64,000 nucleotides of DNA. Origin: Escherichia phage vB_EcoP_PW8. Position numbers and translations under genes: made by a program. Where the stretch lies: sequence record PQ362703.1. One strand, written 5' to 3'. Shown here piece by piece: positions 1 through 38,714 of this stretch. Under the pieces are notes generated by a model. It ran no database searches. It was given only the letters and a program-made list of their open reading frames with translations, and had not been told where the DNA came from. How positions within the stretch are numbered: the stretch's first letter is position 1; every line of letters begins with the position of its first letter.

Positions 1-257
1 TCCATGAATACAGCAGTCTTACCTGCACCACGGAAGCACAGGTTAACTACATACTGGTTCGGACTAATCATCTTATCCAGCATCTTCAAGTGAACTGGCG
101 GTGTTTTGTTGGATTCACCTTCCTTACCATTAACCAACTTAATGAAGTTGGCAAAGGTAAGAGCAAACTGACTAGGAACATAGTTAGATGAATTTAGGTG
201 GGAGTAATCCACCTGGTCTAGCCATTCATCCAGTTCCTGTTTAATTAACTCAGACAT
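1..257 (-). CDS. 5'-truncated-by-window P-loop protein, probable terminase large subunit (N-terminal ~85 aa only)
   Basis: Minus-strand ORF starting ATG at 257..255 and running off the window start; translation ends ...NLCFRGAGKTAVFM, a Walker A P-loop of the kind seen in terminase ATPase domains; position matches the right-end genes of N4-like genomes. Confidence 0.4.
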   Translation of the reverse strand, partial: MSELIKQELDEWLDQVDYSHLNSSNYVPSQFALTFANFIKLVNGKEGESNKTPPVHLKMLDKMISPNQYVVNLCFRGAGKTAVFM

Positions 258-939
258 CTGTAATGTCCTCATCTGCACGTACTAGTTTAGAACCAGCAAC
301 CTCTTTGGTAGGTACACCACTATTGATTGCATTAATCTGCTGTTCAGCTAATGCAGCAAGTGTTGCCTTGAGGTCGGTCAATCCAGAGTTCTCTCTCAAG
401 TCCAGATTGATATTTGTTACCTGGTCTTTTGGTTTAGCTAAGTGAGTAAGGATAGAGTTAGCTGCATCACATCTTACCTTCTCGCTTGCTGCTGTAGTCA
501 TCAGTTCAACCTGAACGTTGATTGCCTTCTGGTAGTTGTCCTGGTTCACAATCCACACTGGAACCAGACTTTGTTCCATGATGAGGTTAACTAACTTACC
601 TCTGTGATATGCAGATACATAAGCACTAATATCTTTCTCACTGGTTCCTCGTGCTACTAGTTCTGCTTGTCGGTTAGGGAATGTCTTGAAGTAGGCTTCC
701 TTATTTGAGTAGCCCATATGTTTATAAGTCACATACTGAACTGCATTCATGTAGTCCTGCGTCTTAAACTTACCTTCCTTCATTACACCAGAGTAGGAGA
801 TAAAGTTTTCACGGAAGGACTCAGCAACCAGTTGATCTTGGATTATGTTGTTAATTGTGTCTACCAACTCCTGGGTCACACTGTTCTTAAAGTTAGTAGG
901 TAGTGCATTAATAATCTGCTGCTTAGTTAGTTCACTCAT
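250..939 (-). CDS. hypothetical protein upstream of the terminase-like gene (N4 gp69-like position; possibly small terminase subunit)
   Basis: 229-aa ORF from track; stop TGA at 250-252 overlaps the next start by a few nt (operon-like); no diagnostic motif. Confidence 0.5.
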   Translation of the reverse strand: MSELTKQQIINALPTNFKNSVTQELVDTINNIIQDQLVAESFRENFISYSGVMKEGKFKTQDYMNAVQYVTYKHMGYSNKEAYFKTFPNRQAELVARGTSEKDISAYVSAYHRGKLVNLIMEQSLVPVWIVNQDNYQKAINVQVELMTTAASEKVRCDAANSILTHLAKPKDQVTNINLDLRENSGLTDLKATLAALAEQQINAINSGVPTKEVAGSKLVRADEDITDV

Positions 940-1109
940 ACTTATCTCGCTACAAAGTTATGTCTATTAAAGAAGATTCTTTTCTTGGGGTGAGTTACCC
1001 CTTGAATAGACGATACCATACAGTTACACTTTAGTCATGATATAGAAAAGTTCATGATACTGTATAGTATGTAATGTTCCGATGACCTTATTCCCCAAAG
1101 GAGTAACCT

Positions 1110-1400
1110 TTGAGAATCTATATGAGAGTCCACGACTCTAAAGATGAATACAAAGAGCTAGACCACACCAAGGCTGGTATTCTTTCAGGTGATATTATCA
1201 TTACCCATGATGAAGATACTTACCATGAATTAGCTGGGATGATGCTGTTAGATAATCGTCATGGCATTAAGATCCTAGAACCAAGAGAAACTTACTCTTT
1301 AGAAAAACGTCCTTCATCTCTTGTGTTCTTCACAAAATTACCTCATAGTGTCTCCGTCAGTCGAAGCAAAGACAGTGTTCGGATGATGGTGACGATGTGA
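1110..1400 (+). CDS. hypothetical early protein
   Basis: 96-aa ORF, TTG start preceded by GGAG at about -10; followed by intrinsic terminator. Confidence 0.45.
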   Translation: MRIYMRVHDSKDEYKELDHTKAGILSGDIIITHDEDTYHELAGMMLLDNRHGIKILEPRETYSLEKRPSSLVFFTKLPHSVSVSRSKDSVRMMVTM

Positions 1401-1548
1401 TTAGTCATGCCGCCTAGTAGACAGTGGCGGTACTCGTAAAGAGTTAATAACTTCTACAGTCAGGGTTGCCCGGCTCCTTTCCTACCTAGTAGGCTAACGA
1501 TACACATGTATCTAGGGTGATGAACTGACCCGTGATAGAAAACGGTAA

Positions 1549-1584
1549 GGGGTAGAGTCGAGAGGCTCTACCCCATTTCTTTTT
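1549..1584 (+). terminator. rho-independent terminator
   Basis: GGGGTAGAG / CTCTACCCC 9-bp stem followed by ATTTCTTTTT. Confidence 0.6.
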
Positions 1585-1600
1585 CAGGAGGTATGCAATT

Positions 1601-1996
1601 ATGAGCATCTACGCCTTTGACATTGATATTACCGGTGTACTCCGTAAGCAGGAACCCTACTACCTAGGGGAACCTGAGATGGTTAGTAAATTCCTATCTA
1701 AACATGTAGTCTTCCTACCAGACTGTGGGGAATCCCATGAGATAGTTGGTTCATTTTTCTTAAGTAATCTGCAAATTAACACTGAGATACTTACTGAACC
1801 AAAGGTGTATGATCTTACTGAGTACTCTGACTTCGAAACATTCTTCCCAGGAATCAGGTTCTATAAAGTACCTGGTTGGGAAATGATTGTTGAACATAAC
1901 CTATTTAATAAAACGCTTTCCGTTTACTTCAGACACATTCCTAAAGGAAGGAAAATCCATCATGAAATTCATACTAACCGCCCCCAGTTTTGTTAA
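1601..1996 (+). CDS. small early protein, paralog family member 1
   Basis: 131-aa ORF with AGGAGG RBS; carries motif VVFLPDCGESHEIVGSFFL shared with neighbouring ORFs. Confidence 0.55.
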   Translation: MSIYAFDIDITGVLRKQEPYYLGEPEMVSKFLSKHVVFLPDCGESHEIVGSFFLSNLQINTEILTEPKVYDLTEYSDFETFFPGIRFYKVPGWEMIVEHNLFNKTLSVYFRHIPKGRKIHHEIHTNRPQFC

Positions 1997-2276
1997 AGGG
2001 GAATTCTTATACACAACAGACTTTACTTTAGAAGAAGTCATAGATAGCAATCCTCAGCATGTAATCCTGGTTCCTACCTTAGAGGATTATCATGAAGTAA
2101 GGGGTCAGCTCTTCTTATCAGGTAACGACCGTAAAGTTGTATGCATCATTCCTCCATCAGTGTATACCGATAGTAGTGCGTATGACGCTTTGCCTTTCAT
2201 GATGGTATCCGATAACTACCAATGGGATTGTAGGCATGAGGATGAGAAATACCATTACTACTATGTAAGGAAGTAA
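1962..2276 (+). CDS. small early protein, paralog family member 2
   Basis: Track ORF 1887..2276 trimmed to internal ATG (Met26) preceded by AAGGAAGG; motif VILVPTLEDYHEVRGQLFL. Confidence 0.5.
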   Translation: MKFILTAPSFVKGEFLYTTDFTLEEVIDSNPQHVILVPTLEDYHEVRGQLFLSGNDRKVVCIIPPSVYTDSSAYDALPFMMVSDNYQWDCRHEDEKYHYYYVRK

Positions 2277-2279
2277 GAT

Positions 2280-2603
2280 ATGCACCTGTATTGCCTGCTT
2301 AGTTTTGCCACTACATGTTATTTATCCCCATACACGCTGGATAATATTCTGGCAGGTAAGGGCAGTGTTACCACCATCCTGTATGAACCAAGTGAAGAAG
2401 CAGAAGAGTTCATTGGTTCCTGTATCATGTTAGGAATACCTATTACCTTGACTAAGATAAATACTTCCATTGTAGTACCAGAAGGTAAGCTAGTGTATAT
2501 CTTCTCTTCCCAAGAACCCATGGTAGTTACTACCCTAACTGGTAGACTTATTACCCTCTATCCTTCTACCTCATATTTATCTAGCGACGAGTGTGCCCCA
2601 TGA
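2280..2603 (+). CDS. small early protein, divergent paralog 3
   Basis: 107-aa ORF with AAGGAAG RBS; degenerate copy of the motif (TILYEPSEEAEEFIGSCIML). Confidence 0.5.
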   Translation: MHLYCLLSFATTCYLSPYTLDNILAGKGSVTTILYEPSEEAEEFIGSCIMLGIPITLTKINTSIVVPEGKLVYIFSSQEPMVVTTLTGRLITLYPSTSYLSSDECAP

Positions 2604-2938
2604 ATAGAGTACTGTATCTCCATCAGTATAAGGATGAAGTCTCTGTTTACTCCGAGAATATCAATGAAGCTATTGAGTGGTTACTACTACAAGACTGTCA
2701 TATGCTTATGCTATCAGGAGATCTAGCAGATAGTACCCGTGGTTCAATTCTTCTACTTAATAGCCCGGCTAAGTTAACCATCCTTAATCCGGGGGAATTC
2801 ATAAAGATACCTGCTGGTGAATCTGCATTCTTGTTCTTTGAACCAAGGATAGAAGAAGGGTTTGTCGGGCTTACTATAGATAGTAGACCTAATAAAGATT
2901 TTAAAAGAGTAAGGATTATATCCCATGAAACTTACTAA
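2600..2938 (+). CDS. small early protein, divergent paralog 4
   Basis: Track ORF 2591..2938 trimmed to ATG at 2600 (ATGA overlap with previous stop); weak copy of motif. Confidence 0.45.
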   Translation: MNRVLYLHQYKDEVSVYSENINEAIEWLLLQDCHMLMLSGDLADSTRGSILLLNSPAKLTILNPGEFIKIPAGESAFLFFEPRIEEGFVGLTIDSRPNKDFKRVRIISHETY

Positions 2939-3251
2939 GATAGGTTATGCTGGTGGACCTATTTCCACTACCCATACAACCTTACAAGACCTTGTGCCAG
3001 GTAGGCTCACTCCTATTATCCTAGTACCGGACGAACAAACACTGCACGAAGTTAAAGGATTAGCTTTATTACTAAACAAGGAGGTTATCGTAGAAGTCCT
3101 TGAACCAGGAAAAGAACTACCATGGTCCTCCTACATGTACTCCCCCTGGCATGTGAATGCGGATAAGTACACTCTTACCTTTGGTATCACAAATGAACTG
3201 CAAACCCCTCACTTGGTATATGCTTCCTCCTATTTATCTGCTTATAAGTAA
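2925..3251 (+). CDS. small early protein, paralog family member 5
   Basis: 108-aa ORF; motif IILVPDEQTLHEVKGLALL. Confidence 0.5.
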   Translation: MKLTKIGYAGGPISTTHTTLQDLVPGRLTPIILVPDEQTLHEVKGLALLLNKEVIVEVLEPGKELPWSSYMYSPWHVNADKYTLTFGITNELQTPHLVYASSYLSAYK

Positions 3252-3395
3252 GATAGCTATCATATTTTTGCATATGAAAAGTAGCATAGTTATGTATGGC
3301 TATAGTGCTACACCTGGGGCTACACCCTTACACTCAACCATCCCCCCCGGTATGTTGACGGTGTAGCCACTACCCTACCCCACCTTACACGTTAC

Positions 3396-3410
3396 ACATG
3401 CTCCGCATGT
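3396..3410 (+). promoter_or_regulatory. conserved hairpin ACATGC-TCC-GCATGT, candidate virion-RNAP early promoter
   Basis: 6-bp stem, 3-nt loop about 45 nt upstream of the 3453 gene; same GC-TCC-GC core as hairpins at 3885 and 7048. Confidence 0.35.
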
Positions 3411-3452
3411 TATGGACATGTCGTCCTATCATCAACTATTGGAGCTATCATC

Positions 3453-3776
3453 ATGACTACTCAAGCTACTGTACGTATGACTGCAGGAACTTTACTTGGT
3501 ACTGTTAACTCAGCTGCTACTACTGTTGCAGATACATTCAGCACTGCAACTAAAGCAGTAGGTATGCTTAATTCGTATGTTAGTACGATGGCAGAGAAAC
3601 AAGCCATTCGTACTAAATTAGAAATGCATACCTTTGTTAATAAACTGGCTGAAGAAACAGCTATGACCGAGACTCTGCGTAAGAAAAGTATTGAGGAATT
3701 CTGCAAGGATTCAGAGAACGCTCGTATCTATAACGCAGAATATTCAAAAGTAATCGACATCCTGACTAAAGACTAA
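3453..3776 (+). CDS. hypothetical early protein
   Basis: 107-aa ORF, GGAG RBS; flanked by promoter-like hairpin and strong terminator. Confidence 0.6.
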   Translation: MTTQATVRMTAGTLLGTVNSAATTVADTFSTATKAVGMLNSYVSTMAEKQAIRTKLEMHTFVNKLAEETAMTETLRKKSIEEFCKDSENARIYNAEYSKVIDILTKD

Positions 3777-3784
3777 GTCACCTA

Positions 3785-3810
3785 GGAGGCTCTTCGGAGT
3801 CTCCTTTTAT
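3785..3810 (+). terminator. rho-independent terminator (TTCG tetraloop)
   Basis: GGAGGCTC-TTCG-GAGTCTCC followed by TTTTAT. Confidence 0.65.
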
Positions 3811-3884
3811 AAACATTAGATAGATAGTCAAAAGTAGATAACTATCTACTTTAAGTTAACTAACTCGCACTATCTTTAAAAGAA

Positions 3885-3899
3885 AGACGCTCCGCGTCT
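3885..3899 (+). promoter_or_regulatory. conserved hairpin AGACGC-TCC-GCGTCT, candidate virion-RNAP early promoter
   Basis: 6-bp stem, 3-nt TCC loop directly upstream of the 3911/4010 gene. Confidence 0.35.
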
Positions 3900-4009
3900 A
3901 AAGGATAAGAATGAATCCACTTCTTATCGAAATCTTAAGTCTTTTCTTGGGTTTAGTCACCGACGGACAAACCCATAAATCAAAAAATCATTTATCTGGA
4001 GAGTACAAA

Positions 4010-4390
4010 ATGTCTATTCAAAAATTCACTTTCGGTCAATCTAACGCTGCTGCTTCTACTGCTAAAACTGATAAACCAAAAGCTCAGTTATGGCTGAACA
4101 TTGGTTATGTAGCTAATGAAGGCTCTGATGATGAGAAATTCATCTCTCTGCCTACTGGTATTCCACTGGATACTCAGGAACCGCTGCCTACTAATAGCAG
4201 CAATGCTGACTTCCGTGCTATGCGTTGTGCACAGAACGACTTGCTGGAACAGTTAATCGCATATGCTCAGAACCTGGAACCAGGTGAAGAGGGTATCATT
4301 AACCTGCAAGTTCAACTTCGTCGTGTGAAAGCAGAGGCTGCTGACATCCCAGCAGACGAGAATAAATATGCCCGTAAACTGACTTTCTAA
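4010..4390 (+). CDS. hypothetical early protein
   Basis: Track ORF 3911..4390; internal ATG at 4010 (Met34) has GGAGAG RBS, whereas the 3911 start sits on the hairpin; alternative start 3911. Confidence 0.55.
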
Positions 4391-7047: not shown

Positions 7048-7062
7048 AGCTGCTCCGCAGCT
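7048..7062 (+). promoter_or_regulatory. conserved hairpin AGCTGC-TCC-GCAGCT, candidate virion-RNAP early promoter (or terminator)
   Basis: 6-bp stem, TCC loop, 34 nt upstream of the RNA polymerase II subunit gene; followed by TTTTGG. Confidence 0.35.
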
Positions 7063-36925: not shown

Positions 36926-37464
36926 CAACAACAACAACCGAACCAGTGGACTTTAATACTCTCCGAAGTCCATTGGTTCAATCTAAACTAAGCGGAAAAG
37001 TTAGCTTTTTCTTGGGTGTAGAACCTGTTGTAGAAAATAAATTATTCCGTAGTGAGTAGTTAATATCGTAAATGATTCTGTTAGAATCCTTTGAGATAGG
37101 AACTCCTATCATAACCTTTCTTAACTTAATCTTTGCCGTATGGCACTGACGCTAGGGGTGGCCCCCCATCCGTCAGGTAGACTATTTTAAGAATGGGTTA
37201 TCTCAGAAAATGTAAAGCAACATTCGGGTTAATCAATGGCCTCTCCCTATAGGGGCCATTTCTGAATCTTAGGCTATATCCCAAAGGTTAGTATCTTTGG
37301 GATAAGGCTTCAGATCCCTTATCAACTAACGCTCATGTTGAGCAAAACATTAACCAATAATGTCGGATAGTTCATTAAGCTATTCATCCAGCATCGAGAT
37401 GTTAGGTCTTACATGCAATATAGGGTATAAAGGGAGGACTCGTCCCCTCCCTCTTATTATAATG

Positions 37465-37534
37465 GTCGGGGTATCACGTAGGCATGTGTAGAAGGTCGCT
37501 ACTTCTCCCGCTGGTTCTAATCCAGCCCCCGACC
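37465..37534 (+). tRNA. tRNA-like element (atypical: short variable loop, weak D stem)
   Basis: 7-bp acceptor GTCGGGG/CCCCGAC, anticodon stem AGAAG/CTTCT with loop GTCGCTA, T arm GCTGG-TTCTAAT-CCAGC. Confidence 0.3.
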
Positions 37535-38322
37535 TACTGACATCCTATCAATGAGTACATTAAGCTAACGTGCGGAGGTTTACACTGTAGCCGGTGTAGG
37601 TGGAGAAGACGGCAGGATAGCTACCTGTGCTTAGTGTACTCTTTGATAGGTTGTGCTATCAAAGTCCAGACGATACCTGAGTGACTTTAAAAACAGATGG
37701 AGCCAGGTGGAATCCCTGGCAATTAATTCAAAGTAGCATTGTACTAATCCATCCCGGAGTTCAAAGGCCAATCATGGAGCAGTGCTACTCTGAATTAGAA
37801 GAATTAAGACGGGTCTGGTGAAGTAGATGGGGTTCGATTCCCTCCGGTAGAGTAATCTACTAGCGTGCTTGGTGCACGAATAAGACTTAATACTGGTGGT
37901 TTGATTCCATCCCCCGTCATCCGAAGTCGCCAGGTACTTATGGCAAACGGGTAGTAACGAACTGGTCATTCGTCAAACGCCCACCTAATTACGAGTCAGC
38001 AAGAACGCCTTCACTTAAACTTAAACAAAAAAGCTTAACGCAATAATTATGTAGGGGTATGTAAGGATTGCGAAGAAGGAGCCAGTTAAAGCCTGGCATG
38101 ACTCACCTAATTGAGGCTGTACTTATGTTCTACAGTAGGTGCACAACACTGGGCTGCTACACCCAGAGGTACAGCCTCACCCTATTACGGGCAATTTAGC
38201 TTAACCTAGTTAAGTAGGTATCATGATTCATTGCTGTAAAATGAGGCTCTTATCAAGCCTCTTCAGACACAGAATCAAGTAAGCTAATGTTGTGGGTATC
38301 TCACAACATGCCCTCCCAATAA

Positions 38323-38403: not shown

Positions 38404-38477
38404 GCCCACTTAGCTTAGACGGGGAAAGCAACCGACTAATAATCGGAAGGTCACTGGTTCAAATCCAGTAGTGGGTA
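38404..38477 (+). tRNA. tRNA gene, apparent anticodon AAU (unusual; assignment uncertain)
   Basis: Acceptor GCCCACT/AGTGGGT, D arm GCTT-AGACGGGGA-AAGC, anticodon stem (A)CCGA/TCGG(A) with loop CTAATAA, T arm ACTGG-TTCAAAT-CCAGT. Confidence 0.5.
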
Positions 38478-38714
38478 CTCATTTAGCAGTAACATAGTCC
38501 TGATTGCATTGCACTCTAAAGACAACACTGGTAAGACAGTCCAGTGGCTGCTATTGTATTGATATTCCCCTCGACGGGAATTTCGCTAGTGAAGGTAACA
38601 CTTAAAAATCCAAACCCACGTCTTACTACTATCGGGCTATCAACCCATGGTCGCTTAACACACTAGTGATAGTAGTTTGACGGACTAGCCTCGTTAGCTG
38701 CGTTAAAGCTACTA

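Follow-up and report, generated by a model that had tools for sequence, protein, structure and literature searches.

Positions 1,601 to 3,251 of a 64,000-nucleotide (nt) stretch of Escherichia phage vB_EcoP_PW8 (PQ362703.1), referred to here in full as the window, hold five consecutive small open reading frames (ORFs), A1 to A5, which an initial annotation had described as a tandem array of five paralogous early genes. We find that these genes, with a sixth member (A0) just upstream, form an old conserved right-end accessory operon of N4-like phages, and not a recent amplification in the early region. In the explanation that we prefer, to which we assign a probability of about 0.6, the genes belong to a Schitoviridae-specific family and their right-end operon is transcribed by the host sigma70 polymerase from mid-infection onward, A1–A5 being expressed by read-through and the products acting as binder or modulator proteins.

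All five ORFs are present as annotated, and the three motif copies quoted for them occur verbatim in A1, A2 and A5. They are indeed tandem and paralogous; the count was too low, as A0, which had been overlooked, carries the family motif as IIITHDEDTYHELAGMMLL. The degenerate copies are TILYEPSEEAEEFIGSCIML in A3 and HMLMLSGDLADSTRGSILLL in A4. Smith-Waterman scores of the members, compared with those of 500 shuffles, gave z values of 12.3 for A2–A5, 8.7 for A0–A5, 7.4 for A1–A2, 7.0 for A3–A4 and 4.8 for A1–A5, and just 0–3.4 for A3 and A4 against the other members, which agrees with the earlier description of a motif shared strongly by three ORFs and weakly by two. Each ORF falls in its own PHROG, annotated as unknown function, and weak cross-hits link these PHROGs to one another.

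Profile comparisons with hhalign join the two groups. The A2–A5 pair scored 91.8%, and shallow ortholog profiles confirmed a core of A0, A1, A2 and A5, with A3 and A4 at noise level and one antisense-ORF control reaching 29.5%. Deeper profiles, to which members from Moo19, KP8, N4, phiAxp-3 (Achromobacter) and inbricus and 19 cluster representatives were added, gave a probability of 94.9% for A3–A4 (P = 4.6e-8), 78.8% for the core against A4 (P = 1.7e-5), and 90.4% for the core against a combined profile of A3, A4 and X32 (P = 1.4e-6), with the motif in register; X32 is a second A4-like gene present in some Gamaleyavirus arrays. All 28 of the 28 control comparisons had P values of at least 0.037. 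In addition, bridging sequences (P0374, KP8 gp069, Moo19 gp1 and gp5, and Jgk1 A0) match both sub-profiles. The similarity is thus above chance, by pairwise alignment within the two groups and by profile alignment between them, and A0–A5 are, as judged from these comparisons, all homologous and members of one superfamily, to which A3 is assigned because it is linked through A4. A weak recurring match of the core profile to a gp67-type virion protein (P = 0.003) went to P = 0.079 with a better profile and was dropped.

A search of 1.84 billion cluster representatives with the core profile returned only 19 clusters at E ≤ 1e-3. Word-indexed searches returned several hundred clusters at 90% identity, with a Pfam domain on none of the hits listed; where listed hits come from long contigs, these measure 70–74 kb in nearly all cases, and one scaffold carrying the family, of 168 kb, represents a phage of this kind assembled in concatemer-like form. 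The 90 phage records matched by tblastn with A0 come from hosts of the genera Escherichia, Shigella, Klebsiella, Achromobacter and Pseudomonas, and every assigned one belongs to the Schitoviridae. The family is therefore specific to the Schitoviridae, and N4 gp70 and gp71 are members of it. Literature searches on the function of N4 gp70/gp71, on right-end transcription in N4-like phages and on phage essentiality screens found nothing on these genes.

We compared the gene layout in N4, Moo19, KP8, phiAxp-3, inbricus, Axy12, PW7 and Moonfish, and it is the same in every examined genus that has the family: a leftward terminase/gp69 operon, a divergent control region, the A0 homolog, a gap of 200–260 base pairs (bp), the array of small ORFs and the right terminal repeat. 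The genes of the window occupy the place of the N4 gp70/gp71 family: they follow the gp69 homolog, which is on the other strand, and precede the right terminal repeat. They also match its PHROGs (7213, 9160, 11661, 12099, 12606 and 16338), and A3 joins the family only via A4. Among Gamaleyaviruses A0, A1, A2 and A3 are kept, and the tail (A4, A5, X31 and X32) varies, giving three to seven genes after the gap. X31 is an extra gene of 104 residues in some of these arrays, unrelated to the family and carrying an HELNH motif (HExxH, zinc-protease-like); it lies at 3687-4001 on the minus strand of L005, occurs also in L003, L008 and L145, and is absent from the window.

The window is a circularly permuted assembly of a Gamaleyavirus (G7C/N4-like) genome. 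Its positions 900-3500 match 58 phage records at 85–88% nucleotide identity, nearly all of them Gamaleyavirus (G7C-like, N4-like Schitoviridae) from E. coli and Shigella, and in the records that are written from the physical ends this stretch falls at the right end. An annotated direct terminal repeat of 403 bp comes straight after the array in Mimir124, and the termini of IME11, a close relative, were mapped experimentally by sequencing to a repeat of 401 bp (PMC3896407). We placed the repeat by aligning the IME11 termini and the annotated Mimir124 repeat to the window; an exact-pattern search allowing up to three mismatches did not find the IME11 terminus strings in the window, and it was the alignment that placed them. 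The left physical end of the genome falls at about 3310, and a spacer of 58 bp separates the array from the right-end copy of the repeat. Because the repeat maps to this position, the array belongs at the right-hand physical end of the linear genome, flanked on one side by the leftward terminase/late operon, whose first gene is the divergent gp69 homolog, and on the other by the right terminal repeat (Table 1). The gene for the gp1 homolog begins within the repeat and ends beyond it, and its right-end copy is for this reason truncated.

Table 1 Features of the array and its surroundings, in coordinates of the window
Feature	Position	Strand	Details
N4 gp69 homolog	250-939	-	Small terminase subunit by annotation in relatives (Moo19 gp85, 'similar to N4 gp69, predicted small terminase')
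Sigma70-like promoter into A0	1002-1030	+	TTGAAT (1002-1007), 17-bp spacer, TACACT (1025-1030); from conservation
A0	1110-1400	+	96 residues, TTG start after AAGGAG; N4 gp70 ortholog; phrog_7213 (9e-44), N4 gp70 (3e-17)
Structured RNA candidate	1405-1584	+	About 180 nt, leader or small RNA; covariation and conserved folds
RNA hairpin P1	1409-1431	+
RNA hairpin P2	1432-1444	+
AAUAAC	1446-1451	+	Single-stranded
CUCCUU	1474-1479	+	Unpaired, in three-way junction
Intrinsic terminator ending the RNA	1549-1584	+	Stem-loop 1549-1574, T-run to 1584
Shine-Dalgarno AGGAGG of A1	1586-1591	+	Read from sequence; starts 2 nt past the terminator T-run
A1	1601-1996	+	131 residues; N4 gp71 ortholog type (2e-8); phrog_9160 (3e-60); dN/dS 0.15
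A2	1962-2276	+	104 residues, ATG at 1962; phrog_11661 (6e-61), cross-hits to phrog_16338 and phrog_9160
A3	2280-2603	+	107 residues; phrog_12099; most divergent member; Moo19 gp5 is its ortholog type (8e-21)
A4	2600-2938	+	112 residues, ATG at 2600; phrog_12606; KP8 gp069 is of A4 type (6e-16)
A5	2925-3251	+	108 residues; phrog_16338 (3e-58)
Direct terminal repeat	~3310-3711	none	About 402 bp; homology to IME11 and Mimir124 termini
N4-type virion-polymerase promoter hairpin 1	3396-3410	+	ACATGC-tcc-GCATGT; inside terminal repeat, upstream of gp1 homolog
gp1 homolog	3453-3776		95% identity to a protein with Pfam label Phage_N4_Gp1
N4-type virion-polymerase promoter hairpin 2	3885-3899	+	Upstream of gp2 homolog
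gp2 homolog	4010-4390		91% identity to a protein labelled Phage_N4_Gp2
N4-type virion-polymerase promoter hairpin 3	7048-7062	+

Three further observations concern the genome ends and the wider window. An inverted repeat, GGCTACACC / GGTGTAGCC (about 3321-3329 and 3360-3368), lies in the terminal repeat, at the very left end. At 3230-3275, the final 20 or so nucleotides of A5 coding sequence (...CTATTTATCTGCTTATAAGTAA) and about 25 nt beyond them are kept in IME11 and Mimir124 (L005, L001), where the preceding gene is a different paralog, X32; N4 gp71 likewise ends in ...AYK, and the conserved stretch may be the scar of a recombination event or a DNA site under constraint beside the repeat. 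Two transfer RNA genes are predicted elsewhere on the plus strand, for Ala (anticodon CGC, 37464-37535) and Ile (anticodon AAT, 38404-38478).

The position of the array bears on the time at which it is likely to be expressed. The N4 virion RNA polymerase requires a template-strand GGA loop and a C:G closing pair in its promoters (PMC4496689), and we scanned for hairpins with a 3-nt loop, applying the N4 criteria of a stem of 5–7 bp, a template-strand loop 5'-GGA-3' and a C:G closing pair. The three hairpins found share the form xxxxGC-tcc-GCxxxx, with a 6-bp stem; the first of them is the promoter hairpin that had been said to bound the array. None occurs upstream of the array, in positions 1-3300, and all three lie downstream of it. 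Instead, a putative sigma70-like promoter of the form TTGnnn-N17-TA(G/C)ACT, with a spacer of exactly 17 bp, stands upstream of the A0 homolog in six genera (Gamaleyavirus, N4, Moo19, KP8/PW7, phiAxp-3/Axy12 and inbricus). Just 5' of this promoter a GC hairpin (987-1001) is kept in the Enquatrovirinae (Gamaleyavirus, N4, Moo19 and KP8), and N4, KP8 and the Achromobacter and Pseudomonas phages also show strong conservation of the 5' untranslated region that precedes the gp70 homolog.

N4 DNA enters the cell left end first, and injection is complete only once the middle transcription machinery has been made, and the late genes use the host sigma70 polymerase together with N4SSB (PMC4496689). Genes of the N4 early type lie downstream of a hairpin promoter and at the left, first-injected end, and the array does neither. 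Because it lies at the last-injected end, behind a host-type promoter and a conserved RNA leader, the array is probably not early, and its earlier assignment to early genes of an early region is not supported. Since the hairpins are all downstream, the sigma70-like promoter is conserved and the left end of N4 is injected first, we infer that host sigma70 RNA polymerase, and not the injected virion polymerase, would transcribe the array from the promoter at 1002-1030. Transcription would then begin only after the right end has entered the cell, from mid-infection onward.

The earlier proposal, that these are host-takeover or anti-defence genes amplified locally under arms-race pressure and expressed together with the neighbouring early region as soon as infection begins, now seems unlikely. 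It has in its favour that the proteins are small, paralogous and without assigned function, that the early genes, on the same strand, lie next to the array in the concatemer-like assembled sequence, and that the array genes diverge faster than their neighbours, with a tail whose composition differs among close relatives. However, the genome terminus lies between the array, at the right end, and the early promoters, the upstream promoter is of the sigma70-like and not of the hairpin type, and a protector of incoming DNA would be expected at the leading end.

The age of the duplications also argues against this proposal. The array is the fastest-diverging stretch of the region, with 78–89% nucleotide identity versus 93% for its neighbours, and the pairwise ratio of nonsynonymous to synonymous substitution rates (dN/dS) against orthologs is 0.15–0.37 for all six genes and 0.06 for the gp69 homolog. 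The six genes are therefore coding and under purifying but relaxed selection, and the pairwise dN/dS values of the six show no sign of gene-wide positive selection. The paralogs are only 13–35% identical to A0 in an eight-sequence alignment. Because Moo19 carries the A1, A2, A3 and A5 types and KP8 the A4 type, the duplications are older than the genera. Near-identical tandem copies are absent from the array; its members have the low identities just given and belong to types common to Moo19 and KP8. Comparison of copy number across relatives, which had been suggested as a check, does reveal variation among close relatives in the tail and in the number of post-gap genes, but it arises by the exchange of distinct old paralogs and not by repetition of one copy. 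Local amplification under arms-race pressure is thus only weakly supported: the fast divergence and the variable tail agree with it, whereas the low identity of the copies, their cross-genus orthologs and the dN/dS values do not.

The gap of 200 bp between A0 and A1 is 92–99% identical among Gamaleyaviruses, A0 averaging 86% and A1 78%, and contains a candidate structured RNA that ends in an intrinsic terminator, found where the initial annotation had placed it. For hairpins P1 and P2 compared across six genera, 93.5% of the cells are paired and 7 of the 12 pairs have changed on both sides; the covariation score is 0.527 versus at most 0.152 for slid controls, and none of the 500 shuffles reached it. 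Independent minimum-energy folds in about eight lineages have the same architecture. Past the single-stranded AAUAAC, two stacked long-range helices close a three-way junction, in which the 5' single strand reads (G)CUCCUU in every case. Next come two variable hairpins, a small one and the terminator, and from there it is a few to about 30 nt to the Shine-Dalgarno sequence and ATG of the first array gene. The order terminator, Shine-Dalgarno, ATG is likewise found in N4, Moo19, KP8, phiAxp-3 and inbricus.

Each genome has a single copy of the 5' motifs of the RNA, which invariably follows A0; this holds for Gamaleyavirus, N4, Moo19, Jgk1, KP8/PW7, phiAxp-3/Axy12, inbricus, L012 and L082. When viral contigs were scanned, a degenerate DNA pattern gave mostly chance matches, and a covariance model separated the true copies; it matches N4-like contigs only. 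Homologs lie at L015 5371-5560, L016 26-250, L018 1537-1780, L019 1620-1800 and L020 1963-2140. The P2 hairpin of Moo19 and KP8 contains an insertion that ends in the loop ACCUCCUUA, the sequence of the 16S ribosomal RNA 3' end. Rfam 15 gave no match at E ≤ 1 for the element at 1405-1584 in the window or for the homologous regions of five other genera.

Past the terminator there is no room for a promoter of their own, and because of this the expression of A1–A5 should depend on read-through. The junctions between the genes are tight or overlapping (35-nt overlap for A1/A2, 3-nt gap for A2/A3, 4-nt ATGA overlap for A3/A4 and 14-nt overlap for A4/A5), and the array therefore looks like a translationally coupled operon. 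In the mechanism that we propose, A0 would be made from the terminated transcript, and A1–A5 would be made only when polymerase reads through the terminator at the end of the structured leader, and would then be translated as a coupled unit. More tentatively, and with less confidence than we have in the operon itself, we suggest that the element could be a previously undescribed, Schitoviridae-wide RNA that gates transcription or translation of the array, through its terminator, the anti-Shine-Dalgarno-like CUCCUU and, in Moo19 and KP8, the ACCUCCUUA loops, or that acts in trans on ribosome-binding sites. The array might in that case supply the proteins of a new phage riboregulatory module whose expression comes late, from the trailing genome end.

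The AlphaFold2 model of A5, built from a 124-sequence family alignment, is a small alpha/beta domain with a predicted local distance difference test score of 82.8 and a predicted template modelling score of 0.75. The motif forms a strand (31–34), a loop and a helix (37–49), and another strand (55–58) follows. The A4 model is confident over residues 21–80 only, and has the same strand-helix-strand arrangement there. The members are probably soluble alpha/beta proteins, of about 100 residues, and are mildly acidic, with isoelectric points of 4.4–6.6; A3 is the most hydrophobic member, besides being the most divergent. The significant matches of the A5 model in BFVD are all uncharacterised proteins of N4-like phages, several per genome, and include PhAPEC7, PhAPEC5, phi G17, EC1-UPM, OLB145, four in Klebsiella KP8 and many in Achromobacter JWAlpha/JWDelta/Axy. 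Pseudomonas phage Zuri adds three that are weaker.

Structure prediction, another of the suggested checks, thus gave a confident A5 model and a similar A4 core at the motif, but no functional match. Pfam, NCBIfam and PADLOC have no match for the family, which places it in no listed defence or anti-defence family; the family profile, searched against PDB sequences, had no hit below E = 0.5, and no match in the fold and family searches points to a function. Because a single Gly is the only invariant residue of the whole family, the proteins appear to have no catalytic signature; a His-Glu pair is near-invariant in the core subfamily and lost in A3 and A4. Two enzymatic assignments were considered and rejected. 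A PD-(D/E)xK nuclease, whose conserved PD and (D/E)xK stand on neighbouring strands of the restriction-endonuclease fold, was suggested by a PD...EVK motif in A5, but the Lys is not conserved (HEVRG, HEIVG and HELAG in A2, A1 and A0), the ExK of A5 lies in a helix five residues past the PD, and there was no nuclease fold match. Phosphoribosyltransferases were the top Foldseek hits in the PDB, at E values of 0.2–1 and a template modelling score of 0.27; the TG.T of the phosphoribosyl pyrophosphate loop, hhhhDD..TG.T, is absent, and the proteins have about 100 residues versus about 170–200 for that domain.

Most likely the proteins bind or modulate host or phage proteins stoichiometrically, with a separate partner for each paralog, and act in middle to late infection. 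This proposal also draws on their mild acidity, on a divergence faster than that of their neighbours and on the purifying selection that they retain. Several points weigh against the explanation as a whole. The timing and the polymerase are read from sequence and from N4 biology, the promoter at 1002-1030 matches 8 of 12 consensus positions and is under the scan threshold, and rightward middle transcripts of RNAPII could read into the array. The direct link between the core and A3 is weak (hhalign P = 0.017), so that membership of A3 rests on A4. The near-invariant His-Glu of the core could mark an active site, contrary to a pure binder role, and the strict position beside the terminal repeat could point to a role at the genome end.

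A role of the latter kind and a hetero-oligomeric complex are the main alternatives to the binder/modulator role, which we favour. In the first, the family would act at the genome end, for instance by recognizing the terminal repeat, protecting the end, initiating replication from the right end or assisting packaging. This would account for the constant place of the genes, with the terminase genes on one side and the right terminal repeat on the other, which is the same in Enquatrovirinae and Rothmandenesvirinae. The array and the terminase operon also have a divergent control region in common, and according to one paper the right end is the preferred starting point of N4 DNA synthesis (PMC3896407). 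We nevertheless regard it as quite unlikely. The second, in which the paralogs would be subunits of one complex, possibly with the upstream RNA, and not independent effectors, is very doubtful: the tail members are gained, lost and replaced between close relatives and N4 has gp71 alone after the gap, although the tight junctions are consistent with translational coupling, the order A1-A2-A3 at the head of the array is kept in Gamaleyaviruses with the same types recurring in Moo19, and the array is invariably linked to the leader RNA. Finally, that A3 and A4 are unrelated ORFs merely resembling the motif, which would leave A1, A2, A5 and A0 as the paralogs, is highly improbable, because the near-noise single-sequence scores, the weak match of A3 alone to the core and the failure of the core profile to retrieve A3 or A4 types among the 1.84 billion proteins are set against the deeper-profile P values, the bridging sequences, the strand-helix-strand core of the A4 model and the match of IME11 and KP8 A4-type proteins (assigned by protein length) to the A5 model at Foldseek probabilities of 0.87–0.97.

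These results have several consequences. Six PHROG families, each separately of 'unknown function', collapse into one superfamily that is specific to the Schitoviridae and includes N4 gp70/gp71; its copies, two to eight with A0 counted, occupy one and the same genomic position in all the examined N4-like genera that carry it. The array becomes an accessory module that is defined and can be tested, in a phage family that serves as a model and is used in therapy, and the RNA leader beside it may be a new phage regulatory RNA. Correcting the 'early' label matters for the choice of time points and host backgrounds in functional screens.

The closest known counterpart is N4 itself, whose gp70 and gp71 are matched by A0 and A1, respectively, and stand in the same place after gp69, on the same strand, and with a gap of about 210 bp that contains the conserved RNA and terminator. 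N4 has a single member (gp71) after the gap, followed by the 42-residue gp72, whereas the window has five and its relatives three to seven. The RNA, in turn, resembles terminator-containing leaders and antitermination RNAs (riboswitch-type attenuators and the HK022 put RNA) and small RNAs from 3' untranslated regions, in being conserved, covarying and closed by an intrinsic terminator directly before the next Shine-Dalgarno sequence. It differs from such leaders in having no Rfam family, and the put RNA lacks the unpaired CUCCUU of the phage element and the loops resembling the 16S 3' end that are seen in Moo19 and KP8.

Gene accordions, such as that of poxvirus K3L, arise by recent tandem amplification under host pressure, and their copies are near-identical and transient. 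The array shares with them the tandem homologous genes and a copy content that differs between relatives; in contrast, its copies are strongly diverged, most types have cross-genus orthologs and each is under purifying selection. Terminal host-takeover clusters (the SPO1 terminal-redundancy module, the T5 pre-early genes and T7 class I genes such as 0.3/Ocr) lie at the leading end under strong early promoters. Like these, the array consists of small, non-structural, lineage-specific genes beside a genome terminus, but it occupies the trailing end and is preceded by a sigma70-like promoter and a terminator, and its members are paralogs, probably of one fold, which is atypical of those modules.

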